This document shows positions 3,904 through 54,100 of a stretch of 64,000 nucleotides of DNA, in pieces (position 1 is the stretch's first letter; each line of letters begins with the position of its first letter). The stretch lies in the NCBI GenBank assembly GCA_052033375.1, contig JBPOJQ010000010.1:5941-69940 (forward strand), given 5' to 3'. Under the pieces are notes generated by a model, which saw nothing but the letters and a program-made list of their open reading frames with translations, had not been told where the DNA came from and did no database searches. The DNA is from Candidatus Magasanikiibacteriota bacterium. Lineage in GTDB: Bacteria; Patescibacteriota; Patescibacteriia; Magasanikbacterales; UBA922. The translations under genes and the position numbers were made by a program.

Positions 3904-3905
3904 TT

Positions 3906-16342: not shown

Positions 16343-16348
16343 AATGTC

Positions 16349-16368: not shown

Positions 16369-16387
16369 CTTGTGTAATAGGAGGGTT

Positions 16388-16618: not shown

Positions 16619-16627
16619 ATTCTAAAG

Positions 16628-16647
16628 ATTCCCGCTTTCGCGGGAAT
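16628..16647. repeat. 20-bp GC hairpin ATTCCCGCTTTCGCGGGAAT, right copy (inverted) flanking GIY-YIG gene
   Basis: Reverse complement ATTCCCGCGAAAGCGGGAAT differs from left copy only by a compensatory C>T / G>A pair. Confidence 0.7.
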
Positions 16648-19600
16648 GACGTATGACTTTTTTAGTCAGGTTTTTGTCTACAAGATAAGAGGGAAGAAGG
16701 TACACACACGTTTTTGTAGCGTGTTATTTTATTTTATGGTATACTTGGTCATGTGTATTTCTAATATTTACTACATGAGGCGCTTTTTTGCACTGGTACA
16801 TACTGGTGTCTCCCAAGCGTACATAAAATTGTTTCCGAACACACTCAAAAAACGGACATGGTGGCCGATTTTTGTCGTTGGTGTGATATTGATTTCAGCC
16901 ATGGCGGTTGGAATTACTCATGCACAATTTGGTCTTGAGAGTTTGTTGAATGGTTTGGTCGAGCTGATTGCGACTATTCTGATTGAATTAGCAAAATTGT
17001 GCATATTTTTGACTATTTTTTTCTTACGTGCCTTCATTACTCTTGCCAGCTACAATAATTTTATTGATGTGAGTGTAGTGAAGCTCGGGTGGGTCATGGT
17101 TCGTGATGTTGCAAATCTATTCTTTATTGTCGGTCTTCTTGTTATTGCATTTGCCACCATTCTTGGTTTTGAGAGCTACGAATGGAAACACGGGTTGGTA
17201 AAAATTGTTCTCATGGCAATTCTTATTAATTTTAGTAATTTGATTGCGCAGCTGGTAATTGATGTTGCGCATATTTTTACGATTACTTTTTTGAATGCAG
17301 TGTCTGCGACTGCTGGTGGAAATTTGATTACGTTGTTTCAGATGGATAAGATACTCGCACTAGCCGCTGGAGCGCCTAATACGCTAGGAGAAACACGAGA
17401 AGTTGCCAGCCTCACTCTATTTGCTGGAGGCGCGCTTGCGTTTATTTTTGCGCTTCTTGCCGCACTCACGGTTGGTGCGTATTTGGTGGTCATGATTTTC
17501 CGTATTGTTATGCTCTGGGCATTGATTGTTCTCTCACCATTTGCATTCATGCTATATGCAGTTCCTAAGGGTGAAGATTATGCGCATGAATGGTGGAGCG
17601 AGTTTAGTAAGCATGTGATAGTGGCTCCCATTATGGTGTTTTTCCTATGGCTGGCGTTTGCGACACTGGGTACTGGTCAGATTATTACTGAAATTCAAGA
17701 TGATCCGAATGTTATTCAGCTTGATTCAACAGGGGAGGAAAAACAGAGCGTCACAGTGCTCGAAATTTCTACGTGGGAGAATTTTGCCAGTTTCCTTCTG
17801 GGAATTGGATTTTTGTGGGTGGGTATCAAAAAGACCGAAGAGACAGGTGCGACTGGGGCTGGGCTTGTGGGAGGTGCGATTGATTTTACCAAGAATGTGG
17901 CAACGATTGCGACTGGATATGCTGCAGGTAGGTGGTTGGTAGGGGCTGCAGGAGAAAAAATCAAATCTGACTTTCCTATTATTGGTGCCAAGTCAATTGA
18001 ACGCAAAGCTGCAGTTGTTAAAGGCGCAATTGGTAAGTACAAATCGAAAGTCGATATGGCAAGAGATGCCAAAGTTCAAGACTGGGAAAAAGGTCTCAAA
18101 GGTGCGTGGGATAAGAGAGATTTAGCGGGTATTTTCAAATTTGGAGCGAAACGTTTCCTTTTGGGGAGTGTTATAGCGTCTAGTAAGAAGAAAGATGCTG
18201 TTGCTGAGACGTGGGAAGAAATGGCTCATCTGGCGGATGAAGAGCACGAAGCACGTATATCGAATAGCGGTACATTTGGTGGTGCGGGTAAGGATGAACA
18301 ACGTATACGGACTGAGCTTGCTGTAGAACTCAAAGAGGCGAAGGGAAAACAGAAAGGTGCCGAAGGTTTGTTGAAGTTGAAGGAAAGTGATGAGCAGGTT
18401 AACAAAGATTTGGATATGATAGCTGAGACAGAAATTTTGGGTCATAAAGCAGAAGAGAGGTTACATACCGAAGAGGAGGAGCATCATTTGCATACAGAAG
18501 ACGAATTGCGTACGAAAGGGGAGTCTGCGTTGGTGAAAGACACAAAAAAATACTTTGACTCAGAAGATGCTAAAAGAAAGAAGGGTGGAAAGCCACCTTT
18601 GACCGAAGAGGAACGGGATGCATATATTCGAGAGAAGTTTAAGGATCTCAAAGGCCCTGCAAAATATGCTGCTCTTTCTAGGGGGTTAAAAGAAATGCAA
18701 GCTCGAAATGAGAAGTATAAGGACGCACTTGAGGATGAAGAGAAAATGAAGAAAGAACAGGCGCGATTAAAGCAGAGTAAGATAAACCCAGACTATAAAG
18801 CATATGATGAACGAGCTACAAAAGCTACGCTTCAGTATGAAAGCGCAAAAGGGGTATATGAAGCTCAGGCAAAAAAAGGTAGTGTTGAGATGTTTCAATC
18901 GTTGATTAAGGATCGTGAATTTCAGGCTGAACAACAGGAACAGGCACGTTTGAGTGGTGAGGTTAAGGCGCTTGAGGATAAAAAAGCTGCCGAAAAAGAA
19001 CTCTTAGCCTTAGAAGAAATAAGAAAAATATTAGCAGCAGGAGGTTTTGCTGAATCTATTGCAGCTCAAGTAGCTCTTGAAGCCAGTAAGGGACTTACTG
19101 ATGCACGAAAAGAATTTGTAACAGGTGAAGAAAGGAAACAATTCGGTGGTCCTGCTGTTAGAGGATTTGATCAGATGTTAGCAGCACAGGCTGTTCTTGA
19201 AAATCAAAAAGAAGAAGCTGAACGTAGTAAAATACATAAACTTGCAGAAGAACGTGCGGTGTTTTATGCAGGACAAGGAGATAATGCTCGTGCTGATGCA
19301 ATTCGACAACAAGCGGCTGCTCAGATTTTAAAGAAAGATAGTGAATTGTTTGCAAATTTATCATATAATCAGCGACGTGGAAGGATGGAAGTAGATGTTG
19401 CTAAACTTGATCAATTACGAGATGTTGTAAGTGCTGCGGCACCAGGTTCTCAGGCACAACAAGTTGCTGCAGAAAGATTAGCTCGAGCTGAAGAACGTCA
19501 GCGTGCCCTTGTCTTAAGTAATATTGCTGATGGATCTCAGACTGCTGAAGCAACTCGTGCACAGGCTGCTCGAGCTCTTGGTTTTGACAAAATAGATAGT

Positions 19601-20458
19601 TCTAATTCTAAAGAATTGGAACTCAGAATGTTGCTTGGTATCGCAAGAAATAAAATTAATCAAGCTACCGGACAAGTATATACAGAACGCGAACTTGAAG
19701 ATATCTTCAATAGTTCTCTTGGAGGTTTAAATGATCCGAGACGAGAAAATTATACTAGACAATATATTGCGGCAAATAAGGTGGCTGCTGGAAAAGGCGA
19801 GTTAGGTGGTGTACGGTTGATGTATGATTTTGTTGGTCCTAACGGTAGAATTGATAATCGTTGGCTAGATCAAACTCAGCGCGGCGATGATTCGTTAGGT
19901 CTTGTAGATTATTTTGCTGCGGATATGTCCCCAGAAGCTGGAGTAAAAGGGCTTGCTGAAGTTAAAAAAATTAATCCTAATACGGGCTCTTCGTCAGTTG
20001 CTAAATTTGGTCAAATAGGACGAAAAGCAATGAGAAAAATAACCAAAGGTCAAACCGGGAGATTTTTTGAAAACAAAAGATCGTTTAGAATTTCTCAAGA
20101 AATGAATGAAATAGAGGTCGATAATAATGAAAGTTTTGATGATTTTTTACAAGTCATCGAAAATTTGAAAGAAGATATGAAAGAACAGGGATTTGAGACA
20201 AGTAAGAGTGCGTGGTCAGAATTTTATAAAAAAATGAGAGAGTACGCAGTTGCTGAAGATGCTGCTGCCATGGCTGATCCAAATTTTGTTGGTCCACCTA
20301 GTGCTGTCTCACGATATGAGAGAGCTATAACACCTCCACCGCGACGACCTCAAGGAGTCGTGGGTGGTAATAATCAACCTCCGGGGGGAGGTGGTAGACG
20401 ACCAGGATTCCGGAGACCAGGGGGAGGTGGTAATAATCCACCACCTCAACAGCCGTAG
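16646..20458 (+). CDS. VirB6/TrbL/ConG-like polytopic membrane protein with ~850-aa charged coiled-coil and Gly/Pro-rich tail (true start likely ~16775)
   Basis: ~8-10 TM helices in first 400 aa; Lys/Glu/Ala-rich predicted coiled-coil; C-terminus PPPRRPQGVVGGNNQPPGGGGRRPGFRRPGGGGNNPPPQQP; annotated 5' end overlaps right hairpin repeat. Confidence 0.55.
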   Translation: MTYDFFSQVFVYKIRGKKVHTRFCSVLFYFMVYLVMCISNIYYMRRFFALVHTGVSQAYIKLFPNTLKKRTWWPIFVVGVILISAMAVGITHAQFGLESLLNGLVELIATILIELAKLCIFLTIFFLRAFITLASYNNFIDVSVVKLGWVMVRDVANLFFIVGLLVIAFATILGFESYEWKHGLVKIVLMAILINFSNLIAQLVIDVAHIFTITFLNAVSATAGGNLITLFQMDKILALAAGAPNTLGETREVASLTLFAGGALAFIFALLAALTVGAYLVVMIFRIVMLWALIVLSPFAFMLYAVPKGEDYAHEWWSEFSKHVIVAPIMVFFLWLAFATLGTGQIITEIQDDPNVIQLDSTGEEKQSVTVLEISTWENFASFLLGIGFLWVGIKKTEETGATGAGLVGGAIDFTKNVATIATGYAAGRWLVGAAGEKIKSDFPIIGAKSIERKAAVVKGAIGKYKSKVDMARDAKVQDWEKGLKGAWDKRDLAGIFKFGAKRFLLGSVIASSKKKDAVAETWEEMAHLADEEHEARISNSGTFGGAGKDEQRIRTELAVELKEAKGKQKGAEGLLKLKESDEQVNKDLDMIAETEILGHKAEERLHTEEEEHHLHTEDELRTKGESALVKDTKKYFDSEDAKRKKGGKPPLTEEERDAYIREKFKDLKGPAKYAALSRGLKEMQARNEKYKDALEDEEKMKKEQARLKQSKINPDYKAYDERATKATLQYESAKGVYEAQAKKGSVEMFQSLIKDREFQAEQQEQARLSGEVKALEDKKAAEKELLALEEIRKILAAGGFAESIAAQVALEASKGLTDARKEFVTGEERKQFGGPAVRGFDQMLAAQAVLENQKEEAERSKIHKLAEERAVFYAGQGDNARADAIRQQAAAQILKKDSELFANLSYNQRRGRMEVDVAKLDQLRDVVSAAAPGSQAQQVAAERLARAEERQRALVLSNIADGSQTAEATRAQAARALGFDKIDSSNSKELELRMLLGIARNKINQATGQVYTERELEDIFNSSLGGLNDPRRENYTRQYIAANKVAAGKGELGGVRLMYDFVGPNGRIDNRWLDQTQRGDDSLGLVDYFAADMSPEAGVKGLAEVKKINPNTGSSSVAKFGQIGRKAMRKITKGQTGRFFENKRSFRISQEMNEIEVDNNESFDDFLQVIENLKEDMKEQGFETSKSAWSEFYKKMREYAVAEDAAAMADPNFVGPPSAVSRYERAITPPPRRPQGVVGGNNQPPGGGGRRPGFRRPGGGGNNPPPQQP

Positions 20459-20485
20459 TTCTTCTTTCAATGTTGAATATATTAT

Positions 20486-21445
20486 ATGCAATCTGAGGAT
20501 ATACAAAATTTAGTTCAAGGTGATTTTTTGAAAGTCGAAGATCAACTTCGTCAACTTATGATTGATCCTGTTGGAGAAGATGTACTACGGAGAGTATTTG
20601 TACAAGTATTTTCAACCTCCTCGTCTGAGGAGGTTAGAAAAAAATGGTGGACTACATATCGACTTTACACTGAACTCAATTGGATGAAATTGAAAGGCTT
20701 ACCTTCTGATTTTGTTGTTGAAACATGTTTTGGAAAACAGTTGATCATGGCTTGTATTCTCAAATTTGAACCAATAGACGAGGTGCTTTGGTTTCTAGCA
20801 GTTCGTTCTCCTGATAAAACTGATGCAATTACCGAATATTCGCGCATACGAGAAGCAGTATTTGAATCAGAGATGGTTGTGGGGATATATAAAAATCAAC
20901 CTCAGAAAGTGAAGGATATTGTACAAGAGATTGTACGTCTTAATCAAATGGATAATCCCTCGCTTGAAGTTGCAGAGTTTAAGGCAAAAGTAGAAACTAT
21001 ATTCTTTTCAGAAATGCCTGATCCTACGTATATTGAACGCTTGGATATTGATAAACGAGAATCGGTTGCTATATTTTTTTCGTTTATTCACTTTCTTATC
21101 GGCGTAAAACCAGAATATATCTATGGACTTGTTGAAGAGGCGTTGCATGCTGATGTGCTAGCAAGGGAAGAGTTACAAAATGAATCTGTTGACACTATTC
21201 AAAATTCAGAGACGGATACAGTTTTAGAACCAGAACAAGAAACTAACACAAATTATTTTGTAGAGATTAAAAATAACATTCAAGCTGATCTCGCAAGTGG
21301 AAAAATAGCGGATGAGGTGGAAGTTTTCGATATCTTGCACGCTTATTCAGAACAGTACAACGATCCTCGTATTCTCGACCTGTATTACTACGATGAACAA
21401 CAAGAAAAATTTGTCTGGAATGAGGAATTATTAAACGAGAATTAA
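20486..21445 (+). CDS. hypothetical acidic protein
   Basis: ORF, no recognisable motifs; within T4SS-like cluster. Confidence 0.45.
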   Translation: MQSEDIQNLVQGDFLKVEDQLRQLMIDPVGEDVLRRVFVQVFSTSSSEEVRKKWWTTYRLYTELNWMKLKGLPSDFVVETCFGKQLIMACILKFEPIDEVLWFLAVRSPDKTDAITEYSRIREAVFESEMVVGIYKNQPQKVKDIVQEIVRLNQMDNPSLEVAEFKAKVETIFFSEMPDPTYIERLDIDKRESVAIFFSFIHFLIGVKPEYIYGLVEEALHADVLAREELQNESVDTIQNSETDTVLEPEQETNTNYFVEIKNNIQADLASGKIADEVEVFDILHAYSEQYNDPRILDLYYYDEQQEKFVWNEELLNEN

Positions 21446-21446
21446 T

Positions 21447-22709
21447 ATGGAAAATAGTTCTAAACTACAACCTACGATTCTTGTGAAAAAAGCGGATGGT
21501 ACGACTGAACGTATTACTCTTCAGGAATTTCGGAAAAGAAAGCAGTCGAGTATCGTACAGTCGCCTGTACCAGAGCCGAAAGTTCTTGAGAAAAAAGTTA
21601 CAGTTATTCCTCCAGCTCCACCAAGACGAGTAATTCCTCTGGTTGAAGAAGTCGAGGAACGGGAAGTTGTTCGTCCTACCATGCCTGCACCTCAACCTCC
21701 GGTACCACAGCCTCCTCGTCGTGTAATACCATTGGTAGAAGATGAAGAGCTTATTGTTAACAACAGACATAGAGAAGAGAAAGAACAGGCGCAGGTGTCC
21801 CCAGTCACTCCTGTGGTTCAAGCTGAGACGCATATAGCAAATACCACACCGGTGACGAAAGTGTTTGAGTCCCCCTATACACATCAGGCTTTGGTGGACA
21901 AACAAAAGTCGAATGGTCATTCCGTCCAAGGCGGATCTGCATTGGGCGAACGGTCACTTCTCGACGAAGATGATTCTGAGATTCGGGTTATAGGCGAAAA
22001 GAAAGGGCAGTTAGTCAGTCACACACCAGCAGTGCCAGTATCATTTTCGAGTTCAGTATCGATCCCAAAAGACTTAGAAGCACGAACATCTTCCCTGATT
22101 TTATCATGGAAAAAAGGAATTCGAGATCAGTATCAATTTATTGAGTATGCCATGAAGTCTCCTTCTGATGGTGGGCTTGGGCTTTCGAAGGTTGATGCAA
22201 CCAAGTTATTTGCTGAAATATCTCAGACCGCAACATTGGGTGCTCCACGTCCTCATACTGGGTCGATTCCCGTGGCTTCTATGACACCTCCTGCACCACT
22301 ACCCACCTCTTCGCAGAAAAAAACAACCGTGCATCAGATTCCATCATCAGCACCATCTGTGATGCAGGAGATTTCTCCTGCACGGGAACGTACTGCTGTT
22401 ATGGGTCCCATTGAAGAAGTAGAATCATTTAGTATTGAAGATTTTCGTAGACTGTCGCGGGTTCCAAAAACTGCAGGTGAAATGCTTCTTGCGAAATTTA
22501 GTGGTTGGAAAGATGAGTCATACTTGCTATACTTACAGGTATGCGAGAGTTGGAAAAAAAGTCTATTGTTTCGATTATATATTGAAAAGACAATTGAGGC
22601 AGTAGAAAAAAATCTTATCATTACTGCGGTATTACAGAATGGTGAATTGACGTATGAAGAATATCTAGCGATTGCAGAAGTGAATAAGAAGTTGGGGCAG
22701 ATGGATTGA
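21447..22709 (+). CDS. hypothetical Pro-rich protein with tandem PPxPPRRVIPLVE(E/D) repeat
   Basis: Duplicated motif PPAPPRRVIPLVEE / PQPPRRVIPLVEDEE. Confidence 0.45.
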   Translation: MENSSKLQPTILVKKADGTTERITLQEFRKRKQSSIVQSPVPEPKVLEKKVTVIPPAPPRRVIPLVEEVEEREVVRPTMPAPQPPVPQPPRRVIPLVEDEELIVNNRHREEKEQAQVSPVTPVVQAETHIANTTPVTKVFESPYTHQALVDKQKSNGHSVQGGSALGERSLLDEDDSEIRVIGEKKGQLVSHTPAVPVSFSSSVSIPKDLEARTSSLILSWKKGIRDQYQFIEYAMKSPSDGGLGLSKVDATKLFAEISQTATLGAPRPHTGSIPVASMTPPAPLPTSSQKKTTVHQIPSSAPSVMQEISPARERTAVMGPIEEVESFSIEDFRRLSRVPKTAGEMLLAKFSGWKDESYLLYLQVCESWKKSLLFRLYIEKTIEAVEKNLIITAVLQNGELTYEEYLAIAEVNKKLGQMD

Positions 22710-22712
22710 TTA

Positions 22713-22819
22713 CAGTCGAAAGTCGTAAAGTCTGTAAAGTTATAAAGTAAAATACAAATAACTTTAGGATTTTATAGATGAATAACTTTCGACTTTATGG
22801 ACTTTTTGACTTTCTGACT
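22713..22819. repeat. imperfect long inverted repeat: AAAGTC/TAAAGT array upstream vs GACTTT array in first 13 codons of next gene
   Basis: cagtcgaaagtcgtaaagtctgtaaagttataaagt ... aactttcgactttatggactttttgactttctgacta. Confidence 0.4.
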
Positions 22820-23257
22820 AAGATTATGCAGCAGTTTATAGTCCCACAATTTATTGAAGTCGAAGATAAAATTTTGGGTCCGATCACGAGTCGGCAGTTT
22901 ATTATTTTATTGATTACCGGCCTGATTGTATTTGGTGCATATCGCTTTGGTGATTTTGCATTATTTATTTTTTGTCTCATATTTTTTGGTATTGGTGGAC
23001 TCGTAATTGCGTTTGTAAAAGTAAATGGACAAGCATTTCATTATTTTTTTCTGAATATTGTACAGACGCTCCGCCGACCGTCACGAAGGGTGTGGCATAA
23101 GACATTATCCAGAAAAGAACTTGAGATGCTCAGAAAGTATGTACCAGAGGCAGTTGAGGTAAAGGAACAAGCAAAACCAGTGAAACGTGAGCGAATTCAG
23201 GATTTGTCATTGTTGGTAAATACTGGTGGGTTTTATAGACCTGAGGATGATCGGTAG
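22778..23257 (+). CDS. PrgI/VirB3-like small two-TM membrane protein
   Basis: KILGPITSRQFIILLITGLIVFGAY resembles GP(L/I)T.RQ motif region of Gram-positive PrgI-family proteins; lies just upstream of VirB4. Confidence 0.45.
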   Translation: MNNFRLYGLFDFLTKIMQQFIVPQFIEVEDKILGPITSRQFIILLITGLIVFGAYRFGDFALFIFCLIFFGIGGLVIAFVKVNGQAFHYFFLNIVQTLRRPSRRVWHKTLSRKELEMLRKYVPEAVEVKEQAKPVKRERIQDLSLLVNTGGFYRPEDDR

Positions 23258-23298
23258 TAATTGTAGCGTTATCGTGCTTAGGTTCAACCCCACCCCAA

Positions 23299-23319
23299 CC
23301 CTCCCCTAAGAGGGGAGGG
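23299..23319 (+). promoter_or_regulatory. GC hairpin CCCTCCCC-TAAGA-GGGGAGGG sequestering the Shine-Dalgarno of the downstream ORF
   Basis: 8-bp G/C stem; 3' arm GGGGAGGG is the only SD-like sequence, 13 nt before ATG 23333; near-copy of element at 15814-15850. Confidence 0.45.
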
Positions 23320-23332
23320 AGAATACTAAAAT

Positions 23333-24028
23333 ATGAAAGATAAAAAAGCAGTACAAAAACGAGCAAAACAATCCAATACCCAGGCGCATCTTCCGATTGC
23401 TGAGATTAAAGATGGAGTCGTAGTTTTAAAGGATGGTACGATGCGAAAGGTGCTTTTGACTTCGAGTATTAATTTTGCGCTTAAGTCAGAGGATGAACAG
23501 AACGCTATTATTTCTGCGTATGTTGGTTTTTTGAATTCACTTGATTTTCCAATTCAGATTGTAGTCCAGTCACGTAGACTACAGATTAAACCTTATTTGG
23601 ATACACTCAGTAAGCTTGAGCGTGATCAGGCGAATGAATTGTTGCGTGTCCAAATCGCTGATTACCGATTGTTTATTGAGGAGTTGGTAGATATGGGCAA
23701 AATCATGACTAAACGTTATTTTGTAATAGTGCCGTATTCGCCGTTGGATAATCAGAAAAAAAGTTTTTGGTCTCGTGCAAAGGAAGTGATTGTACCAGTG
23801 ATTACTTTGAAACTCAAAGAAGAACAATTCCAACGTCGAAAACAAGATTTGGAATTGCGTGTTCGTCAGATTAGTGCTGGTCTGGCTAATATGGGACTTG
23901 AAATAGCTGAGCTTGATACACAAGCGTTGATTGAATTGTACTACAGTACCTATAATCCAGATATATCTTTTGCTGAACAGATGGGCGATGTGGGGGCACA
24001 GCAAGTAGAAGAAAATTTACCTATGTAA
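23333..24028 (+). CDS. VirB4/ConE (TraE) ATPase N-terminal segment
   Basis: IAEIKDGVVVLKDGTMRKVLLTSSINFALKSEDEQNAIISAYVGFLNSLDFPIQIVVQS matches N-terminus of Gram-positive VirB4-type ATPases; same frame as next ORF, separated by one TAA. Confidence 0.7.
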   Translation: MKDKKAVQKRAKQSNTQAHLPIAEIKDGVVVLKDGTMRKVLLTSSINFALKSEDEQNAIISAYVGFLNSLDFPIQIVVQSRRLQIKPYLDTLSKLERDQANELLRVQIADYRLFIEELVDMGKIMTKRYFVIVPYSPLDNQKKSFWSRAKEVIVPVITLKLKEEQFQRRKQDLELRVRQISAGLANMGLEIAELDTQALIELYYSTYNPDISFAEQMGDVGAQQVEENLPM

Positions 24029-24031
24029 TGT

Positions 24032-25894
24032 ATGCCTTTTCAACCTGTCTCATTTGAATCACAAAATAAACGACTGAGTTCGTCCGCAGACAAAAAGAAA
24101 ACGGATGAAACATTGGTCACGCTTGAGGAAGAGCGTGTCTATCGTGAGGGGACTGTATCCCTTCGCGACTTGATTGCGCCTTCAGCTTTTAATGTTGAGT
24201 CAAATTTTTTGCAATTGGGCTCTATATTTTTGCGTACCATTTTTGTGGTGAGTTATCCACGCTATATTTCAATTGGCTGGTCTAGTCCTATTCTCAATCT
24301 CAATTTGACCATGGATGTGGGCATGTTTTTCTATCCAGTCGAAGCTCCTATTATTCTCAAACAATTGAAGAAAAAAGTGGGAGCACTCCAGGCACAGATT
24401 AGTCAGGATACTGAAAAAGGTGCGCCACGTGATCCTATTCGTGAAACTGCGCTTCGGGATGTCGAACAATTGAGAGATGACTTGACTCAAGGAATTGAAC
24501 ATTTTTTCCAATTTGCATTTTATGTAACTTTGTACGCGTCTACCAAAGAAGAATTGGACCGTGTAACTGAGGATATACACAATATTTTTGGATCCAAATT
24601 GATTCACAGTAAACATGTGTTATACCAGTCAGAACAAGGGTTTAATTCTACCGCGCCACTTGGGATTGATGAATTGGTGATTTCATTTAATATGAATTCA
24701 AGTCCCATTGCTGCGTCTTTTCCATTTATTTCGACTGAACTCACTAGTGATAATGGAATTCTATACGGTATCAATAAACACAATAATAGTTTGATTTTGT
24801 TCGATCGTTTTTCTTTGCAGAATGCTAACATGGTGGTATTTGCGACGTCTGGAGCCGGCAAGTCTTATGCTGTCAAACTTGAAATTCTTCGAAGTCTCAT
24901 GATGGGGATTGATGTCATTGTGATTGACCCTGAAATGGAATATGTACACCTTTCAGAGGCGGTTGGTGGAACCTATATCAATATTTCACTTGCGTCTGAG
25001 AGTAAAGTAAATCCATTCGATCTTCCACGTCCTGTGGGGCAACAAATTTCGACTGAAGATGTGATACGAAGCGCAGTTATCACTATGAAAGGACTTCTTC
25101 GTATTATGTTTGGTACACTTACTGCTTCTGAAGATTCGATTCTTGATCGCGCAGTGCTCGAAGCGTATGCAAAAAAAGATATTACCACTTCTTCTGATCT
25201 CGCTACTATTGAAGCCCCGATTATGCAGGATTTGCTTGACGTTCTCGAGGGAATGGAGGGCGCCGATACGCTTGCACTTAAACTTCGAAAATATACTGAT
25301 GGAACGTTTGCTGGACTTTTCAATGCTCCGACCAATGTAAATATGAACAATCAATTGGTGGTCTTTAGTGTGCGTGATTTGGAAGATGAACTACGTCCGA
25401 TGGCTATTTATACGCTTATTAATTATATATGGAATATTGTTCGATCAGAGCGGAAGAAACGCTTGTTGGTCATTGATGAAGCATGGTGGCTCATGCTTCA
25501 TGAAGATAGTGCAAAATTCATGTATGCGTTGGTAAAAAGATGCCGCAAATATTATTTAGGAGTCACGACAATCACACAGGATGTGAATGATTTCTTGCGC
25601 TCTCCATACGGACAGGCAATTGTAAATAATTCAGCATTACAATTATTGCTGAGACAAGCTCCTTCTGCTGTGGATATGATTCAAAAAACTTTCATGTTGA
25701 CCGAGGGTGAAAAATATTTATTGCTCGATAGTGGTGTTGGGCAGGGAATATTTTTTGCCGGAAATCGTCATGCTGCAATTCAGATTGTTGCTTCGTATAC
25801 CGAAGATCAGTTGGTGACTTCGAATCCACAGCAATTATTGGAAATAGAACGCGCAAAGAAAGAATTTCAGAATGAATTTAAGAAAGAATCTTAG
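24032..25894 (+). CDS. VirB4/ConE (TraE) conjugative-transfer ATPase, C-terminal segment
   Basis: LRDLIAPSAFNVESNFLQLG...; Walker A VVFATSGAGKSYAV; Walker B LLVIDEAWWL (DEAW typical of VirB4/TraC family). Confidence 0.85.
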   Translation: MPFQPVSFESQNKRLSSSADKKKTDETLVTLEEERVYREGTVSLRDLIAPSAFNVESNFLQLGSIFLRTIFVVSYPRYISIGWSSPILNLNLTMDVGMFFYPVEAPIILKQLKKKVGALQAQISQDTEKGAPRDPIRETALRDVEQLRDDLTQGIEHFFQFAFYVTLYASTKEELDRVTEDIHNIFGSKLIHSKHVLYQSEQGFNSTAPLGIDELVISFNMNSSPIAASFPFISTELTSDNGILYGINKHNNSLILFDRFSLQNANMVVFATSGAGKSYAVKLEILRSLMMGIDVIVIDPEMEYVHLSEAVGGTYINISLASESKVNPFDLPRPVGQQISTEDVIRSAVITMKGLLRIMFGTLTASEDSILDRAVLEAYAKKDITTSSDLATIEAPIMQDLLDVLEGMEGADTLALKLRKYTDGTFAGLFNAPTNVNMNNQLVVFSVRDLEDELRPMAIYTLINYIWNIVRSERKKRLLVIDEAWWLMLHEDSAKFMYALVKRCRKYYLGVTTITQDVNDFLRSPYGQAIVNNSALQLLLRQAPSAVDMIQKTFMLTEGEKYLLLDSGVGQGIFFAGNRHAAIQIVASYTEDQLVTSNPQQLLEIERAKKEFQNEFKKES

Positions 25895-25934
25895 CCCATA
25901 TACTACGTAATACGCATACCATATATCACAAGTA

Positions 25935-26558
25935 GTGCGGGGTATGTGTCATAACAATTATACATATATGCTTTCTCTTCGAAAACGAATTTTGTTACTC
26001 ATAGGGAGTGTACTTTTTATTATATTATTAATTTTATTGTGGGTTTTCTTCAGAAAGAAGGCCCCGACGGTTGCCCCTGTGGAAACAATTCCAGAGACTG
26101 CTGAAGTCGAGATTGATCCGATTACGACTGTTGAGTATAAGAGACCAGATACCATTCCTACACAGCCCACAGCAGTGTCTGTCCATCCTGATGAGACGTA
26201 TGCAAAACAAACTGCGCGTATTTTTGTTGAACGTTTTTGGAGTTATTCAAATCAGAATAGCAATCAGCACATCGATGATGCGCTGGAGCTTTCTGTTGAT
26301 TCCATGCATACATGGATTATATCTCAGGCGCAAGAGCAAGGTATGCAGTATGCGGGTGCAACTACAGAGGTTTTGAGTTCGAGAATTTTGTCTCTTGATG
26401 CTCTGAATGCTTCAGTTGAGGTGGGCGCACGACAGGTAGTACAGAGTCTTGATCGTGAAGGTGCTATTGTCGAAGAAATAAAAAATATTACAGCCAAAGT
26501 TGATTTGGTAAAAACGGGGGATACTTGGTTGGTATCCGGATTGTGGCTGACTCCATAA
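25935..26558 (+). CDS. hypothetical bitopic membrane protein, possible VirB8-like
   Basis: Single N-terminal TM plus ~170-aa extracytoplasmic domain; position after VirB4. Confidence 0.35.
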   Translation: MRGMCHNNYTYMLSLRKRILLLIGSVLFIILLILLWVFFRKKAPTVAPVETIPETAEVEIDPITTVEYKRPDTIPTQPTAVSVHPDETYAKQTARIFVERFWSYSNQNSNQHIDDALELSVDSMHTWIISQAQEQGMQYAGATTEVLSSRILSLDALNASVEVGARQVVQSLDREGAIVEEIKNITAKVDLVKTGDTWLVSGLWLTP

Positions 26559-26564
26559 TACGTA

Positions 26565-27296
26565 TTGTATTTATTTTTTTGTGGTATGCAAGGGGGGATT
26601 TTTTATTTTGTTGTACACAATATCTTTGAGTATATTTTTCCTGTTTTTTGTATTATCTGTGGACGTGAAGGTTGGTTGATGTGTGAACAATGTGTTCAGA
26701 GTATAGATACACCGGGTGTTTTTTGTTGCCCAGTATGCCATCGTGAACAGCCTGGAGGAGTGTGTTGTATAGAATGTCGGGGCAGTACTCCGCTGGTTCG
26801 TCATGTTGCGATGATGCCTCTCTCTGAGATTTCTCCTATACACAAACTTATTCATGTGTATAAATATGATTATTGTGAAGAAGCTGAATCAGTATTTGAA
26901 AATTTGGTCACTACTTTTTTTGAGACATATATTTTTCCTCAGGTAGATTTTATTGTTCCCGTACCGTTGCATAGAAAAAGATATGTTGAGCGTGGGTTCA
27001 ATCAGAGTGCACGCATTGGGCGCATGATTAGCGCGGCCACTGGTATTCCGTATATTGACGCATTGTCTAGAGTAAAAAATACTGTAAAACAAGCAACACT
27101 TGACCGCGTAGGTAGGGAAGAGAATGTACGCGATGCTTTTATAGTAACAAAAGAATTACATGAAATTCTATCATGTAAACATATTGTTTTGATTGATGAT
27201 GTATATACTACAGGCAGCACACTGAGAGCATGCGCTGCAGCACTTCACCATGCTGGTGTACGTGAGATTTCTGGGTGGAGTGTTGCGAGAGGATGA
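26565..27296 (+). CDS. comF: ComF-family protein (ComFC-type phosphoribosyltransferase domain)
   Basis: N-terminal Cys pairs CIICG..CEQC, CPVCH..CIEC; C-terminal PRTase motif IVLIDDVYTTGSTL. Confidence 0.85.
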   Translation: MYLFFCGMQGGIFYFVVHNIFEYIFPVFCIICGREGWLMCEQCVQSIDTPGVFCCPVCHREQPGGVCCIECRGSTPLVRHVAMMPLSEISPIHKLIHVYKYDYCEEAESVFENLVTTFFETYIFPQVDFIVPVPLHRKRYVERGFNQSARIGRMISAATGIPYIDALSRVKNTVKQATLDRVGREENVRDAFIVTKELHEILSCKHIVLIDDVYTTGSTLRACAAALHHAGVREISGWSVARG

Positions 27297-33202: not shown

Positions 33203-33205
33203 TAT

Positions 33206-45851: not shown

Positions 45852-48146
45852 ATGCTCCCGAAGACTCGACGAACAATTAATACAAAGTTAAAAGTTACCG
45901 TATGGACCTTTCGTGCGGTTGCTTTTGTTTTTTTATTTATTTTTTCTTTCCACCTGTTCGGCGATGTTTTGTACGCAGCACCTTCGAGTGTGGCAGAAGA
46001 CCAATTTGGTATTGAGGGTGTTGGTGAAAATATTAGCATTCCGTCAGATCCGAATTCTGATATTAGAGTAATTATTGTTCGGATTATCAATGTTGTGTTG
46101 ACTTTTCTTGGTATCGTGGCGGTGGGTTTTGTACTCTATGCTGGTTATCTCTGGATGACCTCTTCTGGGAACGAGGAACAAGTCGCTCAGGCTAAAAAAA
46201 TGCTTGTTAATGGAGTTATTGGTCTTACGATTATACTTTCAGCTTTTGGGGTGACGAGTTATATCCTACGGTCTCTTATTAATTCGATTAATGGTTCAAG
46301 TGGTGGTGTGACGACTGGTACGCGTCCTGCGGTCGCTACGTATACATTTTCTGGTTCTCTTGGAAGCGTGATTAAGGATCATTATCCTCGTCGTGATCAG
46401 CGTGAGGTTCCGAGAAATACTAGTATTGTGGTCACTTTTGGAGTTCCTGTTGCTCCGTCGTCACTGATTGAAAATATTAATCGAACCTGCTGGAGTGATG
46501 ATTGGTCTCAACCAACTACCATATGTAAAACTCCTTCAGGAGGAGTTGTCGATACCAATACTCCGCTTGATCAAATTGTTAATCCGTATTATGGGGACTG
46601 TGTTGATACCAATAATGATGGAACTGTTTCAGTACAATCTGAATGTGATCGACTTATTACTGATCGAGTAGTCTTTGATGAACGTTCATTATTTACTTCC
46701 GCTGTCTCTGAGGGGGGCTCTATAGGAAAATCAGCGGCTGCGCTTACTACGTATGACTTACAGAGAAATGCTTTCACTTTTGTAATTAAGCCATATGAAT
46801 ACTTGGGTTCTTCAAGCGAAGATATTGAGTACCGTGTTCGATTGACCCCAGAAATTATGCGAGCTGATAATGGACAGAGTGTGTTTGAAAATCAATTTTC
46901 AGATGGGTATGTGTGGGATTTTACTACAGGTAATACGCTCGATTTGGCGCCCCCACATGTGTTGAATGTCTATCCTGAGACCGGTTCGATTATTCCAAAA
47001 AATTCAATTATTCAGATTACATTTGACGAGCCGATTGACCCTACTACTGTTGAGAGCATAGTAAATGAGGGTTCGAATAATACATTTGTTTCGACTTTGC
47101 TTAATCAGAAAATAGGCGAGACTCTATATGCTGTGTCTGGATCATGGAGACTGACGAATGGGTATACCACGCTTGAATTTACACCAAGCGCTGATTGTGG
47201 AGTCAATAGTTGTGGGGAGAAAATGTTTTGTCTCGAAGTGGATTGTTCGGGTGCCACCTGTACTAATTCATATGAGGCTCTCCTTCGGACCGCAGAATGG
47301 ACGAGAAATAGTCAATCACCTTTTGAATCCGTACCTTTCTCTGGTATTTATGATTTAGCGTTTAATGGACTCGATAATACAGCAGATAATGAGACGAGTA
47401 ATCATCTTACTAAGCCTGATCTCAATACTGCAATTTTGATTCAACCTGCTGAAAAAAAACCTGATAATTATTGGTGGTCTTTTCAGGTTTCGAATACTAT
47501 CGATCGTTCGGCACCGTATATCGAAGAGATTATTCCAGGTGTTGATGCAGAAGATATTTCTGGTAGCATTCCTGTTTCAATACGTTTTAGCAAACGTATG
47601 ATGTCTGCGACGTTGCAGGGTGTGGATATACGCAGTGGAATTTCTCTGTTGGAGCATCCCACGAATATTTGTTCTGACGCTGCTATTGATACTGAATCTC
47701 CAAATGAATGTTCCGATGACGCACGGTTGGATAATTTATGGTTCAGAGTGGGTAGTGTAATAGTTGGTGATAAGACTCGAGCTATTTTGGACCATCGTGA
47801 ATTTGGACCCAATGGTCTGGATTTGTATTACATTCCAAGTGTTCCTAGCACCGTCAAAAGTGTGACGCAGAATTGTGTATATCCAGGAATTGGCCCATGG
47901 ACAGAGACACCAGCTCCCTCAGGAGAGGCATCTGTATGTGAAGTGACATACGATAAAAATGGATACGTGCAATCGAGTGTGGGCTGTGTCGGGGTTACTC
48001 ATAATGACGCTCTCGAAGATACTGGGTGTGTGTATACACTTGGTTCGGGGTATACTGCTGGAAGTCCAAGCGATCCTATTTTTCGAGCGAGTGACATAGA
48101 GTCTTGTGTGAATCGTCTCTATACTGAGTCTCAGAATTCATATTAA
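45852..48146 (+). CDS. secreted/membrane-anchored protein with N-terminal signal peptide + two-helix pilin-like module and Cys-containing ectodomain
   Basis: N-terminal ~140 aa ~60% identical to N-terminus of the 3433-aa protein (IRVIIVRIINVVLTFLGIVAVGFVLYAGYLWMTS..AKKMLVNGVIGLTIILSAFG). Confidence 0.55.
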   Translation: MLPKTRRTINTKLKVTVWTFRAVAFVFLFIFSFHLFGDVLYAAPSSVAEDQFGIEGVGENISIPSDPNSDIRVIIVRIINVVLTFLGIVAVGFVLYAGYLWMTSSGNEEQVAQAKKMLVNGVIGLTIILSAFGVTSYILRSLINSINGSSGGVTTGTRPAVATYTFSGSLGSVIKDHYPRRDQREVPRNTSIVVTFGVPVAPSSLIENINRTCWSDDWSQPTTICKTPSGGVVDTNTPLDQIVNPYYGDCVDTNNDGTVSVQSECDRLITDRVVFDERSLFTSAVSEGGSIGKSAAALTTYDLQRNAFTFVIKPYEYLGSSSEDIEYRVRLTPEIMRADNGQSVFENQFSDGYVWDFTTGNTLDLAPPHVLNVYPETGSIIPKNSIIQITFDEPIDPTTVESIVNEGSNNTFVSTLLNQKIGETLYAVSGSWRLTNGYTTLEFTPSADCGVNSCGEKMFCLEVDCSGATCTNSYEALLRTAEWTRNSQSPFESVPFSGIYDLAFNGLDNTADNETSNHLTKPDLNTAILIQPAEKKPDNYWWSFQVSNTIDRSAPYIEEIIPGVDAEDISGSIPVSIRFSKRMMSATLQGVDIRSGISLLEHPTNICSDAAIDTESPNECSDDARLDNLWFRVGSVIVGDKTRAILDHREFGPNGLDLYYIPSVPSTVKSVTQNCVYPGIGPWTETPAPSGEASVCEVTYDKNGYVQSSVGCVGVTHNDALEDTGCVYTLGSGYTAGSPSDPIFRASDIESCVNRLYTESQNSY

Positions 48147-48151: not shown

Positions 48152-51100
48152 ATGAAACGCCTGTTTTCTTTTGTAAATATAGTATCAATTGGGGTCGTCC
48201 TTTTTGCAGTGTATTTTGGCTTTGCGGGAACTTTTTTCGCGCAAGAAGCAGTAGCTGATACTTTTGGACTCACTAGCGTGGGAGAACAAATTTCTGTGTC
48301 GAGTCAAACTCCTGATTTGAGGGTTACTGTGGTGCGTATTATTAATATTTTTTTGGGTTTTTTGGGAATTGTAGCAGTTTGTATCGTGTTGTATGGCGGA
48401 TATTTGTACATGACGTCGAGAGGGGATGATGAAAAAATCGGTACAGCAAAAAAAATCTTGGTCAATGGCTCAATTGGGCTTTTGATTGTACTTTCTGCAT
48501 TTGGAATAACTTCATTTGTATTATCTCGGTTACAAGATTCAATTTCTGGTACCTCTGGGCCGGGTGGTGGGGGCGGGGGTGGAGGTGAATTACTAGGATC
48601 GTGTGACGATGTTAATTCTCCGTATTATGCGGCCTACGCGACGACTCGTTGTGCACAATTTTGTGATAATCATCCGGTGCAGTGTGCATCCTCTCAGTAT
48701 TTTATTGTAAAAAGTATTACTCCTCACACACCTGATGCTGCTGACTCAACTGGTATGAATAATTCTGTGATTCGCGTGTTATTTAGTAAACAGCCAGCAG
48801 GTGCAGTGAGCGATATCTTTAAAATATTTAAAAAAGAAAGCGAACAAGAAGTTGATATTACGAGTCAATTTAATTTTTCATTTGAGGAGGGTGGTCTTCT
48901 CGTTGCTGCGACGTATACACAAGGACCTGCCTGTGCGTCGGTAAATGGTGTTTCAGTGTATTGTCTTTCGAACGGTGAATATCGGATTGAAGTGAATCAA
49001 AATTTGCGTGACATTGAGGATCGAGCATTGACCCTTGAGGTTGCAAATCAGTCATTTCCTCGAATTGCGACATTTCGTACTGGTTTATCGGGCGACACAC
49101 CTATTATTGATAGTGAATTTTCTGCTCTTGCACCAATTTCTATTGGAGGTTACCACGGTGATGATACTTTTCGAGCAGTCCGCGGAGAGACATATACGAT
49201 TGAAGGCACTCTCGGAGATACTCATGGAAACGCGTACGTGGATATGAAAGTTTATCGTGAAGGTTCATCTGGTCCGAGCGTTGTAAGATATGTTGATGGT
49301 CCACGTGTTCGTGCTACGGGTGGCTCTAGTCAGTCATTTGATTTTGAATACACACTTCGAATTGATTCGAATAAATTTGCCCCTGCAGTGGTGTATGTTG
49401 TGGAAATTATTGCGCATGATATTGATGGAAATACTGCCACCGATATAGTCAAATTTATAGTGGTACCTGCAAGTTGTACGAATGGTCTTCTTGATGCGGG
49501 CGAAACTGACGTCGATCAAGGAGCTGTGTGTGGTGGCGCACAGGGTAATAGTTGTCAATCTCAGAGTGATTGCGCTTATTGGCTCCAATGTCTTGATAAT
49601 GCTAATGCTGCATGTACTGGCTCAAATTGTTCATGTAAAGAAGTTCCTTATATTTCGAGTGTTGAATATATGAATGGTGCGCCAGGTAACTGGATTACTA
49701 TATTAGGTAAAAATTTTGGATCATCTGTTGGGGAAGTTACATTTAATTATGATTTTGATAGCAATGGTACTATAGATTCTCGTGTGCCTGTAGTGCTTGC
49801 TCAATGCCAGGAAGGGACTGTGTGGAATGATTCGTGGATCATTGTTGAAGTTCCTCAGCAGGCGCAATTTGCTTCTGAAGATGAGATCGTCAATCCTTCT
49901 ATTTCAGTTGTTTTACCCTCAGGACTTTCAGATTCTACGGATAATGATTTTGGTCCTCAACTTGGTACCTTTGTATATAATACAGTACAGCGTCCAAATC
50001 TATGTTCGGTTACTGTTGATGGTGATCATTCTGTACCTCTTGAGGATGGTACGAGTGTCACATTACATGCAGGTGATACCGCTGCACCACAGGGAACACC
50101 TGTGATTCTCGAAGGTAAGGGCTTCGGTATGTCTGAAGGTGAAGTTATTTTTCATACTGCTGCCGCAAATGTTGAGTCATGGTCAGGCGATGTTATTAAT
50201 TCTGCTGTACCATTTTTGGGTGAAGGACAGACTTCGGTGTATATTACATCTGATCTTGGTGAAAGAAGTAATCCTGTTTCTTTTATTGTTTCATCACCTG
50301 CTAATCTACGCCCACCAACTATTACCTCGATTGATCCAACGTCTGTGACCAAAGGGAGTTACATCACAATTACGGGTAATCGTTTTGGAGTGAGTGGTAA
50401 TGTGTACTTCACGCAGATTGAGGGTGGAAATTGTCCTGGGGCTGGGTGTATCCTCGGAGGGACACTTCCTCAGTCGTGTGGGAACACATGGAGCGTTAAT
50501 CAATTGATTACCAAGATCCCTGATGATCTTGAGTTTGCACTCGGTACATATTTTGTTGTTGTTGTTCGAGAAGATGGTGTAAAAACTGCAGGGTCAGAAA
50601 GTATCACTGTTGTCGCAGGTCCACCTTCGCCCAGTATTTGTCGTATTGATCCGCATCGTGGGTTTGCACCTATTTTTGATGAATCTGATGCAATCACTAT
50701 ATATGGAGAGAATTTTATCACTGACTCAGCAGTGAAGTTTTGGTACCCTCTCGGACAGTCGCAAGATCCGGATAGCTGGCTTTCAACTCAGTTGGGGGCA
50801 GGTATTGATGGTGGATCAATTTTAGATCTGACTACTCAGGAAATTAAGACGACTATTCCATATGATCCTGATTCTGGGCTTTCTATGTCGAGCGGACCTG
50901 TCAAAATTAAAAATGCCGCTGGATTATTCAGTAATGCAGTGAACTATACGGTATTGGATTGTCGTGATCCTGGTAGTCCACAAATTTCTGGATTCCAGTG
51001 TTGTAGTGAGGGTCCTGAGGCGGGTAGATGGAAACATGGAAATTATGCGTGTGAAAATTCGAGTCGTGAAGCCGGGTATGTGTGGAGATTTTCAAGTGGT

Positions 51101-54100
51101 AAAATGCCACAAAAGTTTTTTGTAAATGAACTTTGTTCGGACAGTGGATCACCCTCACCTAGTCCTTCAACACTCTGGAGCGATGGGTATAACGTATGTG
51201 TGAATGCTCAGTTGACTATTAATTTTAATTTACCAGTGAATCGGGCGACTGTTTTGGATCAATCAGGTAATATCACAAACATTACGATTTCTCAATGTGG
51301 AGGTACTGACACTGCAATTGATTGCTCAAACGATGAGCAGGTTGTTACTTCTGAATTTTCGGGTGAAGAGATGGGGGAGAATGCATTAGTTTTCAGAAAA
51401 AAGGATGGACCAATACTTTCCCCGCAGACGTGGTATCGCGTGGGTCTTTCGTCTGCTGTTTCTTCCCTTAGATTTGAAAATGAACTTGGAGATTTGGTTG
51501 AAAAAACAGAAAATTTGGAGCCGACACGTGAATGTCAAATCAATGGGGCAACCTATGCATATTGTTTTGATTTTAGAACTGGCCCTGCTAATTTTCAATG
51601 TTCACTTGTAGGCGCTGGAATTCATCCTTCAGATTACACCACAACACTTCTTGGAGTGGTACAGGATTCGCGAGGCAATAAAATTTATGATATTAATCGA
51701 GTATTTAATATATCTGCTGTACGTCCGCTAACATATCGTGTGTATGGTAAAAGCAATTTAGCATGTACGACGATTAATGTGGATGATAAGCCATGGGCAT
51801 GGGGTCCAATTGATGATGCGCCTGCGACTGGAAAACAAATGGTTGGACAGGTGCAGTCAAAAGGATATGCGGTAGCCTGGGAGCATTTTCCCGCAGGCTC
51901 TCCTATCAGTGCGACCATTATTGAAAATAGTGAAGAAATTAAGGCAGTGAGCATGCTTAGGATTACTCTTGGAGATCCGTACGCGAAGAATGTCTGGCCA
52001 TCGTGTAATGAGGCGTGTGTAAATGCTGAGATTGGTATTGAGTTCAATCAGATTATGGATGTTCGCACTTTTGATGCTTCGAAGTTGGCATTACATGAAT
52101 GTAGTACCGAAATGTGCGACTCATTAATCGAACCTTCTGTTCCATTGGTAATCACATCTGATTTGCAAAGTGAAACCATTCTTCGTGCATATCCAGCTAC
52201 GCTTTTGAAGAAAAATACATGGTATATTGTTGACTTGGAGGAGGGGGTGCGTGCTATAGGAGGTGTGGCCGAGGGCGAAGGTACTAAACTGGGCAGTAGT
52301 GTGCAGCCAAAACAGTGGAAATTCAGAACCAAAGATTCAGCACAATCATGTCTTGCTGATGCTGTTAAAATTTCGCCTGATCCTTTTTATTCAACTTATA
52401 TCGGAGAAGCGCAGTTATATCGAGCACTTCCTGTCGGTTCCCCAGATTCTTGTAGCGCGTCTGGCCAGCAGCTTAATCCGTGGAGTTATGGTTGGAATTG
52501 GAGCGTCGAAGATTCTGGAGTTGCGAAAGTAACTAACTTTAGTTTCAAAGGTTCTACTAAATCAGCGTGTACTATTGGCTGTACTCCTGTTGGTAGTGAT
52601 ATTTCCCGTCAACTGACGAGTTATCCTGTGTGTGGTAATGGTACTAAAGAGTCGGGCGAAGATTGTGATATTGCTCGTCCGGGTGAAATTCCTGGGACAA
52701 GTTGTTCATTTTCTTGTCTTCGTCCAGGTAGTAGCGCAACGTGTGGTAATGGTATTGTAGAGAATTCTTCAGGCGAAGAATGTGACTATAACGCTCCGGG
52801 TGCGATTCAAGGACTCTGTACGAATACATGTACCAATGCAGGATCTGCTTCACAGCCTGATATCGCTGGGAATGTGAATGCGCCTGTGTGTGGTGGGGGC
52901 GGCATCGGCTACGGCGAGGATTGTGATATTGATGATCCAGCGACCAAACATGGGTGTTCTAATACCTGTGTGAATATTGGTACACCAATTTCTCAGGCAT
53001 GGTGTGATGGGTGGGTGAGTTATTCTCAAAATCCAGGCAGTGTTAGTGCTGTAATGCGTGTACAGTATGCAGAAGTAAGTATGTCTGAATTCACAGCGGC
53101 ATGTGGTTCTGCTACTAGTGTTTGTGGTAATGGAATTATTGAGCAAGGAGAAGAGTGTGAGAGTACGGATTCTTACTGTTCAGCTCGTTGTCTGATTCAA
53201 AATGCATGTAATACACCGTATCAACAGTGCGCGCGTGGTGAAGAAGGTTGTCTCTCGGATTGCACATTTGCAGGTTCGTCGATTATGTACTCTACTCCTT
53301 CGGTTTGTGGAGATGGTATTGTCGGGATTGGAGAATTTTCCTCAGAAGATGATGATATTCGCTCATGTGAATTACCTCTAGCGACTGTTGGTAATACTCT
53401 TGGTGGAAATCCTGTACAGGTGGTCACGGCAGTGGGTAATCCAAGTAATGTTCCAACTACAGGGGTAGTTACTGATATGGAGACTAGGGTACAGGCACAG
53501 GCAAGTGTCGGACGCGATGAAGCTACGGGGAATCAGATTTCGATTGCTTCGGTCGCTGGCGAAGGTGAATATCATCTTCAGTGCGGATACGATGAATATG
53601 CGACCAAGCAAAGCGATGGTTCGTATAATAACTGTCCGTCTAATTCTGATAATACTTTCGGCGTTGCTTCTAATTCGTGCTGTATTGAACGACCGGCAAG
53701 AGTCGAAGAATATCCCATTTCGAATGCGGGTATCGGTGCCGGGAGTACGCCGGTATGCCGTAATACATATATTAGTGTTAGTTTTGATCAGAATATTCCT
53801 GCGGAATATATTCAAAATAACATTCAATTAGTCCAAGGTTTTGCACAGGGTTATTCGTGTTCTGAGCATGGTGGAAAAGATGTGACACTTGCGTTGAGTA
53901 GCGCACTTGATACAAACAGTACACATACTCAGAATTTTTGGGTCCGTGTCTGGAATTCAATTAAAACATTCTTTGCTCAATTGATACAAATTCGTGCACT
54001 CGCAGCACCTCAACCAAACGCATCAGTTCCGGGTGATCTGGTGCTGTGTTCAGGTGTGACTCCGTTTACTGTGAGACCAAGTTATGAAACGAATGCTGAC

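Follow-up and report, generated by a model that had tools for sequence, protein, structure and literature searches.

Gene content and order of the operon

A type IV secretion system (T4SS) operon of eight genes, ending in comF, was found in DNA of a Candidatus Magasanikiibacteriota bacterium (GenBank assembly GCA_052033375.1, contig JBPOJQ010000010.1, positions 5,941 to 69,940). This stretch of 64,000 nt is called the window, and the coordinates of the operon are counted from its first letter. The eight open reading frames (ORFs) are co-directional on the + strand within 16646-27296, with short spacers or none between them, and all eight are intact (Table 1). The ORFs of the initial annotation, which a model had made from the sequence alone, are all present at the positions it had assigned to them, on the + strand. 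It counted seven genes, having overlooked the 231-aa ORF at 23333-24028. An alternative genetic code was rejected, because ORFs of up to 3433 aa stay open under table 11. The scan for promoters and terminators was uninformative (31 promoter-like sites against 32.6 expected).

Table 1. Genes of the T4SS operon and candidate accessory genes in the window
Feature	Position (nt)	Strand	Basis or remark
VirB6-like, extended polytopic membrane protein (1270 aa)	16646..20458	+	
g2, fast-evolving soluble protein (319 aa)	20486..21445	+	No transmembrane segment, no family; positional operon member
g3, lineage-specific soluble protein (420 aa)	21447..22709	+	Conserved N- and C-terminal motifs
PrgI/VirB3-like protein with two transmembrane segments (159 aa)	22778..23257	+	Pfam PrgI
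TrsD/TraD-like protein (231 aa), putative separately encoded VirB4 N-terminal domain	23333..24028	+	NCBIfam
VirB4 ATPase core (620 aa), Gram-positive CD1110/MPF-FATA type	24032..25894	+	NCBIfam, Pfam, PDB
VirB8-like bitopic protein (207 aa; 196 aa from likely start)	25935..26558	+	Structure prediction
ComF, ComFC-type (243 aa), terminal operon gene	26565..27296	+	TIGR00201, motifs
Candidate accessory, secreted 764-aa protein, VirB2-like T4SS_pilin and Ig-like (Big_5) domains	45852..48146	+	Pfam
Candidate accessory, giant 3433-aa surface protein, T4SS_pilin then TIG, Big_5 and VWA domains	48152..58453	+	Pfam

The Pfam and NCBIfam scans covered the window ORFs of at least 150 aa, apart from a few overlapping or antisense ones. 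A search with the VirB4 ATPase core gave 584 confirmed relatives, and the best 80 of them (loci L001-L080) are the base of the locus counts. The order VirB6-like, g2, g3, PrgI, TrsD-like, VirB4, VirB8-like, ComF was kept across the 80 loci. The dN/dS ratio (nonsynonymous to synonymous substitution rate) was 0.02-0.3 for nearly all operon genes; these values indicate purifying selection but are approximate, with dS near saturation.

The VirB4 ATPase matched the NCBIfam model conju_CD1110 (E 4.4e-105; 352.6 bits, cutoff 325), at model positions 158-730 only. It also matched the Pfam families P-loop_TraG (4.9e-29), AAA_10 and DUF87, and carries the Walker A motif SGAGKS at aa 273 and the Walker B motif DEAW at aa 482. 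These results confirm the VirB4/ConE ATPase that the initial annotation had named with the same two motifs. The closest solved structure is the C-terminal domain of Thermoanaerobacter VirB4 (PDB 4ag5, 7.7e-46). The small PrgI-like protein was likewise borne out by Pfam PF12666 (E 4.2e-10; 40.5 bits, cutoff 27) and by its two transmembrane (TM) segments at 36-54 and 62-80. PrgI was found in 75 loci, conserved upstream of the TrsD-like gene, with a dN/dS of 0.08-0.10. Hidden Markov model (HMM) searches had been proposed as a check on the annotation, and Pfam and NCBIfam support its VirB4, PrgI and ComF assignments.

Judged by profile matches, the missing N-terminus of VirB4 is the predicted product of the preceding TrsD-like ORF. 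This ORF matched positions 90-233 of the mycoplasma VirB4 model VirB4_plasma (3.2e-10), positions 11-91 of the CD1110 model (1.6e-8) and the stand-alone TrsD/TraD family (4.3e-6). The scores are below the curated NCBIfam cutoffs, yet they are consistent, and 72/72 TrsD-like orthologues matched both TrsD and the N-terminal region of VirB4_plasma. A profile search of the orthologue alignment against PDB sequences returned nothing useful. The dN/dS was 0.03-0.05 for the TrsD-like gene and 0.02 for the VirB4 core. VirB4 is split into two genes in all 78 of 78 loci, in different frames in 55 of them and with spacers of up to 272 nt, and the two-gene split is universal in the lineage. In the window the two ORFs are in the same frame, with TAA and one codon between them. 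A pseudogene, a sequencing error and a recoded read-through were considered for this TAA (between 24028 and 24032) and rejected. The split is not a nonsense mutation, because the two parts are separate genes at every locus and mostly lie in different frames.

A similar layout was seen on a non-mobilisable Firmicute replicon, the Pontibacillus sp. megaplasmid NZ_CP062975.1 (347328-367103). The order there is a pilin-like Mbov_0395-family protein, a 780-aa protein, small proteins, a 275-aa protein, a 621-aa CD1110-family VirB4 and a peptidoglycan endopeptidase. This VirB4 is likewise N-terminally truncated or split, and the annotation shows no relaxase in its vicinity.

Direct Pfam and NCBIfam scans gave no match for the VirB6-like or the VirB8-like protein, and profile searches of their orthologue alignments against PDB returned nothing useful for either family. 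Both assignments were supported by structure prediction and structure comparison, in which R388 T4SS structures were among the matches. Pfam TrbL was matched by 16 of 53 orthologues of the VirB6-like protein, so the polytopic VirB6/TrbL/ConG-like protein of the initial annotation stands. Its conserved N-terminal domain has about seven TM helices (aa about 70-450), and across the orthologues conservation is confined to residues of about 100-450. The remainder, an Ala/Glu/Lys-rich hydrophilic region of variable length followed by a Pro/Gly/Arg tail, is variable in both parts, and orthologue lengths range from 487 to 1873 aa. Such a build agrees with the "extended VirB6" type of a recent review (PMC12857230).

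The VirB8-like protein is predicted to start with a TM helix, which a disordered linker joins to an NTF2-like domain at the C-terminus. The initial annotation had described a bitopic, possibly VirB8-like protein and proposed structure prediction of 25935-26558, which gave this domain. The lower-ranked matches in the structure comparison include TraE, TraH, PrgL and pIP501 TraM, and generic NTF2 enzymes score lower still. A VirB8-like role of the protein is supported by the modelled fold, because the fold matches coincide with a bitopic topology and a position right after virB4. Its start is likely the ATG at 25968, giving 196 aa as in homologues.

Upstream of the VirB6-like gene, a GIY-YIG ORF (82 aa, 16370-16618) lies between 26-nt inverted repeats at 16346-16371 and 16625-16650. 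Each repeat is itself a GC-rich hairpin; the two copies are the only ones in the window, with 0 expected by chance. The closest relatives, L002 and L003, yielded no GIY-YIG homologue. The segment 16346-16650 looks like a small inserted GIY-YIG cassette. The first ATG of the VirB6-like ORF is covered by the right arm of this cassette, and translation of the gene may therefore begin at M44 (nt 16775). Upstream DNA of 3 kb or more is available for 21 relatives, and in 11 of them the VirB6-like gene directly follows the 3' end of a gene for a very large, Cys-rich secreted protein (e.g., L042:2-2482). This gene runs off the locus edge; its product lacks any Pfam domain, and no homologue of it occurs in the window.

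No TM segments and no Pfam or NCBIfam domains were found in g2 and g3. The gap after the VirB6-like gene is at least 900 nt in 48 of 52 loci, and all 48 of these gaps contain an ORF of 223 aa or more; the g2 family was recognised in 36 of them by an iterated HMM. The g2 protein is only 29% identical to its counterpart in L002 (L002:6284-7249), with 70-98% identity in the adjoining genes; divergence or gene replacement is thus concentrated at this spot of an otherwise conserved operon. The g3 gene was present in 68 loci, directly upstream of PrgI (median gap 5.5 nt), with a dN/dS of 0.18-0.19. The protein has a Pro-rich centre, an N-terminal motif ILVKKxDGT and a C-terminal motif DFRRLS...ESYxLY...AW..SPLY. 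Its 58 database homologues are all hypothetical proteins without a Pfam domain, and the profile search of its orthologue alignment against PDB sequences gave no match. The initial annotation had called the two proteins non-conserved. They belong to no database family; in position they are conserved, and they are lineage-specific operon members and not fillers.

ComF, which had also been assigned to the module at the outset, matched TIGR00201 over the full model (positions 1-190 of 190, E 1.2e-28), with 100 bits, below the 233-bit cutoff. The NCBIfam scan also gave GntX (1.3e-26). The protein consists of a double zinc ribbon and a phosphoribosyltransferase (PRT)-like domain, with four CxxC motifs at 29, 40, 55 and 68 and a phosphoribosyl pyrophosphate (PRPP) loop, IDDVYTTGST, at 210. 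Cys29/32/40/43 and DD..TTG.T are invariant across 46 orthologues. A profile search of the orthologue alignment against PDB sequences recovered the generic PRT motif only. comF was present in 60 of the 64 loci with enough downstream DNA. In 59/59 loci it comes right behind the VirB8-like gene, separated from it by a median of 3 nt. In the published survey of the phylum, T4SS loci of the class ABY1 commonly include comF, recG and radA (PMC12102498). The coupling of comF to the operon is tighter than "commonly include" conveys.

Chromosomal setting and inheritance

The operon lies among housekeeping genes. Upstream are the genes for ribosomal proteins L2, L22, S3, L5, L6 and S5 (60-6689), followed by secY, adk, map, recO, an asnS/aspS-type synthetase gene and rsmB. 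Downstream are ribH/ribE, a cyanophycin-synthetase-like ligase gene, tRNAs, hsp20, clpP, smc, rpsP, lepB, hisS, ybeY and ftsA. The genes flanking the operon are retained only in the closest relatives L002 and L003, with rsmB upstream and ribH/ribE downstream as here. GC content is even at about 0.40 (operon block 0.39-0.42, window 0.37-0.44). No direct repeats of at least 14 nt bracket the operon block, and the nearest tRNAs are 5 kb from it, past unrelated genes. Relaxase, VirD4/type IV coupling protein (T4CP) and integrase were not found among the scanned window ORFs, in agreement with the initial annotation, which had reported none of them in the window. The identity of an integrative and conjugative element (ICE) was rejected because of the housekeeping flanks, the uniform GC, the lack of att-like repeats and the lack of mobility genes in the scanned ORFs. 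These same features agree with the chromosomal, non-mobilising T4SS-like apparatus suggested at the start. VirB1-like hydrolases are likewise missing from the operon: Pfam and NCBIfam gave no hydrolase domain for any of its eight proteins.

The VirB4 core is 71-98% identical in the 80 best species-level Patescibacteria loci, of which those with a meaningful label are mostly metagenome-assembled genomes named as Candidatus Magasanikbacteria or Patescibacteria group. This identity, together with the dN/dS of the core, indicates long vertical inheritance. The best-listed plasmid-borne VirB4 matches had 27-36% identity (at most 35.5% among the 15 best), and all 5000 records returned by the plasmid search were below 60% identity.

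Relation to known systems and proposed role

The system has already been published, and the locus adds no new kind of system. VirB4 proteins of Patescibacteria form a monophyletic clade near MPF-FATA (Quinonero-Coronel et al. 2025, PMC12102498), and a 2025 review treats the Patescibacteria systems as newcomers to the T4SS superfamily (PMC12857230). In the phylum survey, TrsD was the most abundant accessory component, PrgI was common, VirB6 was detected patchily, VirB8 homologues were almost exclusive to the class ABY1, and VirB1 was rarely linked to virB4 outside Paceibacteria (PMC12102498). Southlakia epibionticum cannot grow as an epibiont without its T4SS cluster (SEML1_0006-0019; Wang et al. 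2023, PMC10633639). The cluster is similar to conjugative systems of Gram-positive bacteria, its pilins are essential, and it has no relaxase or coupling protein (PMC10633639).

Like these Patescibacteria-clade systems, the system described here is chromosomal, and its VirB4 probably belongs to the clade that is specific to the candidate phyla radiation (CPR) and related to MPF-FATA. They also have in common the TrsD-like and PrgI/VirB3 genes adjoining virB4, a VirB6-like protein, the absence of a relaxase or coupling protein nearby and the presence of proteins with a VirB2-like (PF18895) pilin domain in the genome; the VirB8-like protein and the comF association are shared with ABY1. The Saccharimonadia locus differs in having an in-cluster array of short VirB2-like pilins and peptidase and lysozyme genes downstream of virB4. 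Here the operon has no short pilin or hydrolase, comF is last, and pilin domains occur in the window only at the N-termini of the 764-aa and 3433-aa proteins; essentiality has been shown for Southlakia alone. Since the non-conjugative T4SS of Patescibacteria and its comF link were described in 2023-2025, the finding is a tool-free rediscovery. The initial annotation had overlooked this literature as well as the conserved VirB4 split.

Conjugation systems of Gram-positive plasmids and ICEs share with this operon the order VirB3-like, TrsD-like, VirB4, a VirB4 above the CD1110 cutoff, bitopic VirB8-like NTF2 and polytopic VirB6-like proteins, and the lack of an outer-membrane core complex. Unlike the present system, they have a relaxase, a T4CP, an origin of transfer (oriT) and a VirB1-type hydrolase, and they export DNA. 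To our knowledge, no conjugation operon of these elements contains comF. Helicobacter pylori takes up DNA by the ComB T4SS, and its ComFC is a membrane-associated binder of single-stranded DNA (ssDNA) that links DNA transport to recombination (PMC9005727). Both systems are T4SSs without a relaxase and non-conjugative, and in H. pylori the T4SS is functionally coupled to ComFC, a protein with a zinc finger and a PRT domain (PMC9005727). The ComB system differs in being a diderm MPF-T system (VirB2-4/6-10) with comFC outside the comB operon, and import has been shown there, whereas here it is hypothesised. The archaeal Ced system (CedA/CedA1/CedA2/CedB) also combines a VirB4-like ATPase with polytopic membrane proteins and no relaxase, and it imports DNA. 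The VirB4 here matches the CedB model weakly (42 bits, cutoff 700), so it is a functional analogue and not a member of that family.

We are very confident that the system is a Patescibacteria T4SS. With nearly the same confidence, we regard it as a chromosomal, vertically inherited T4SS of the Patescibacteria clade, in an arrangement typical of ABY1/Candidatus Magasanikbacteria. It would be non-conjugative, derived from MPF-FATA machinery, and would most likely serve to exchange macromolecules with a host cell upon contact, as the homologous essential system may do in Southlakia epibionticum.

By analogy with known T4SSs, the operon would encode a pared-down monoderm T4SS that descended from Gram-positive MPF-FATA conjugation machinery and lost its role in conjugation. 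A VirB4 hexamer would be the cytoplasmic motor, docked at the membrane through PrgI/VirB3 and the separately made TrsD-like N-domain. The extended VirB6-like protein would form the membrane channel, and VirB8-like multimers would scaffold the passage through the wall zone. The soluble proteins g2 and g3 may act at the cytoplasmic face, perhaps as adaptors. The giant fusions with VirB2-like pilin domains (45852-58453) could perhaps provide an external filament or contact structure. This proposed assembly leans partly on general knowledge of Gram-positive T4SSs, besides the R388 structures.

The cargo is less clear than the machinery. We tentatively favour the handling of nucleic acid, probably its import, over pure protein export, because comF abuts the operon and ComFC links DNA transport to recombination in H. 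pylori, which uses a T4SS. Our support for this part remains limited, since Southlakia requires the T4SS but can do without comEC, comF and dprA (PMC10633639). A more specific version, in which the ABY1 T4SS imports host ssDNA (possibly RNA) through the VirB6/VirB8 channel to ComF and giant pilin-anchored adhesins touch the host, is rather unlikely. If true, it would describe a "reverse conjugation" device for feeding or gene acquisition in bacteria unable to make nucleotides.

It is quite possible, though short of probable, that the same T4SS exports proteins (effectors or toxins) to the host or builds only a VirB2-type attachment pilus, with comF as a passenger. Given that relaxase and coupling protein are absent, Wang et al. 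suggest that the system exports proteins or has some other capacity (PMC10633639). The dispensability of the com genes and the essential pilin arrays of Southlakia fit this explanation, as do the hypervariable g2 and the variable VirB6 tail, which are consistent with host-facing or effector-like evolution. However, the fixed place of comF after the VirB8-like gene, despite deep divergence of the loci and reshuffled flanks, makes chance hitch-hiking hard to uphold, and no operon protein has a toxin or enzyme effector domain recognisable by Pfam or NCBIfam. We consider export or a pilus alone and the handling of nucleic acid about equally likely.

Readings as a conjugation system or as a decayed one are very unlikely. 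According to the first, the operon would be the mating-pair-formation part of a conventional ICE or integrated plasmid, with the relaxase, coupling protein and integrase outside the window. Its VirB4, PrgI, TrsD and VirB8 families are indeed those of Gram-positive conjugative elements, the flanks differ among more distant relatives, and a few Patescibacteria carry relaxases (PMC12102498). But the closest relatives share the housekeeping flanks, the composition is that of the rest of the window, att-like repeats were not found in it, nor mobility genes among its scanned ORFs, and VirB4 combines high identity over the 80 loci with a low dN/dS. In the published survey, a relaxase was near virB4 in only 15 cases among 2,474 virB4 genes detected (PMC12102498). 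Less credible still is the idea that an ancient conjugative system is decaying here, for which the single frame of the two VirB4 parts would speak, since the split is universal with frames and gaps that vary, both halves have a dN/dS of 0.02-0.05, all eight ORFs are intact, and every N-domain orthologue examined matches a stand-alone family known from pGO1-type plasmids.

No T4SS before that of Patescibacteria had been shown to be required for growth of the bacterium that carries it. The present locus is a fully checked example of the ABY1 arrangement, and the details added are the universal VirB4 split, the fold-level confirmation of VirB8 and VirB6, the tight comF coupling and the conserved g2/g3 slots. 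The comF coupling and the giant pilin-domain adhesins offer handles on whether ultrasmall epibionts acquire host nucleic acids through a T4SS.

Pilin-domain surface proteins and neighbouring genes

A possible connection of the surface proteins at 45852-60876 with the T4SS had been raised by the initial annotation. Both large ones start with a signal peptide and a two-helix T4SS_pilin (VirB2-like) domain, which lends the suggestion support; the link is by family only. PF18895 was matched at aa 74-138 of the 764-aa protein (1.3e-7) and at aa 63-123 of the 3433-aa protein (1.7e-5), and the two pilin domains align well with each other. From these domain matches, the giant pilin-domain proteins may be linked to the operon. 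They lie about 18 kb from it, and pilin-domain ORFs were within 10 kb of virB4 in only 2 of the 80 relatives. An HMM built from the two domains found no further ORF with a pilin domain in the window, and thus no short VirB2 pilin.

An exhaustive search for the pilin domain gave 25,528 representative proteins. The layout of the two window proteins is widespread: among the best 150 representatives, about 35 are proteins of 1100-5289 aa whose only pilin domain is N-terminal, and the remaining ones include short pilins and tandem multi-pilin polypeptides. P0044-P0048, P0072, P0086 and P0116 have 4-17 tandem pilin domains each, and P0047 has 17 matched stretches in 1775 aa. Such polypeptides may be true poly-pilins, or gene calling may have joined the pilins of an array. 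The phylum-wide survey detected no adhesins of the PrgB kind (PMC12102498). A term search of that survey and a literature search for the combination gave no mention of pilin-adhesin fusions.

The deposited titles of the relatives are partly inconsistent. Many relatives with the operon at 72-98% identity (L002-L004, L007, L011 and others) are titled "uncultured Gammaproteobacteria bacterium", and one "Candidatus Methylomirabilis sp."; these titles are evidently taxonomic mislabels of deposited bins.

The commonest neighbours downstream of comF in the relatives are genes for a VanW/PG_binding_4 protein (670 aa) and Hsp20, in 15 and 12 of 40 loci, respectively (e.g., L016:15930-17936 and L023:13765-14238). 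The VanW/PG-binding protein could be a wall-remodelling stand-in for the missing VirB1. In the window, the Hsp20 and VanW/PG-binding pair is at 32702-35219 (VanW 33183-35219), 5.4 kb downstream after an insertion of the rib and ligase genes.

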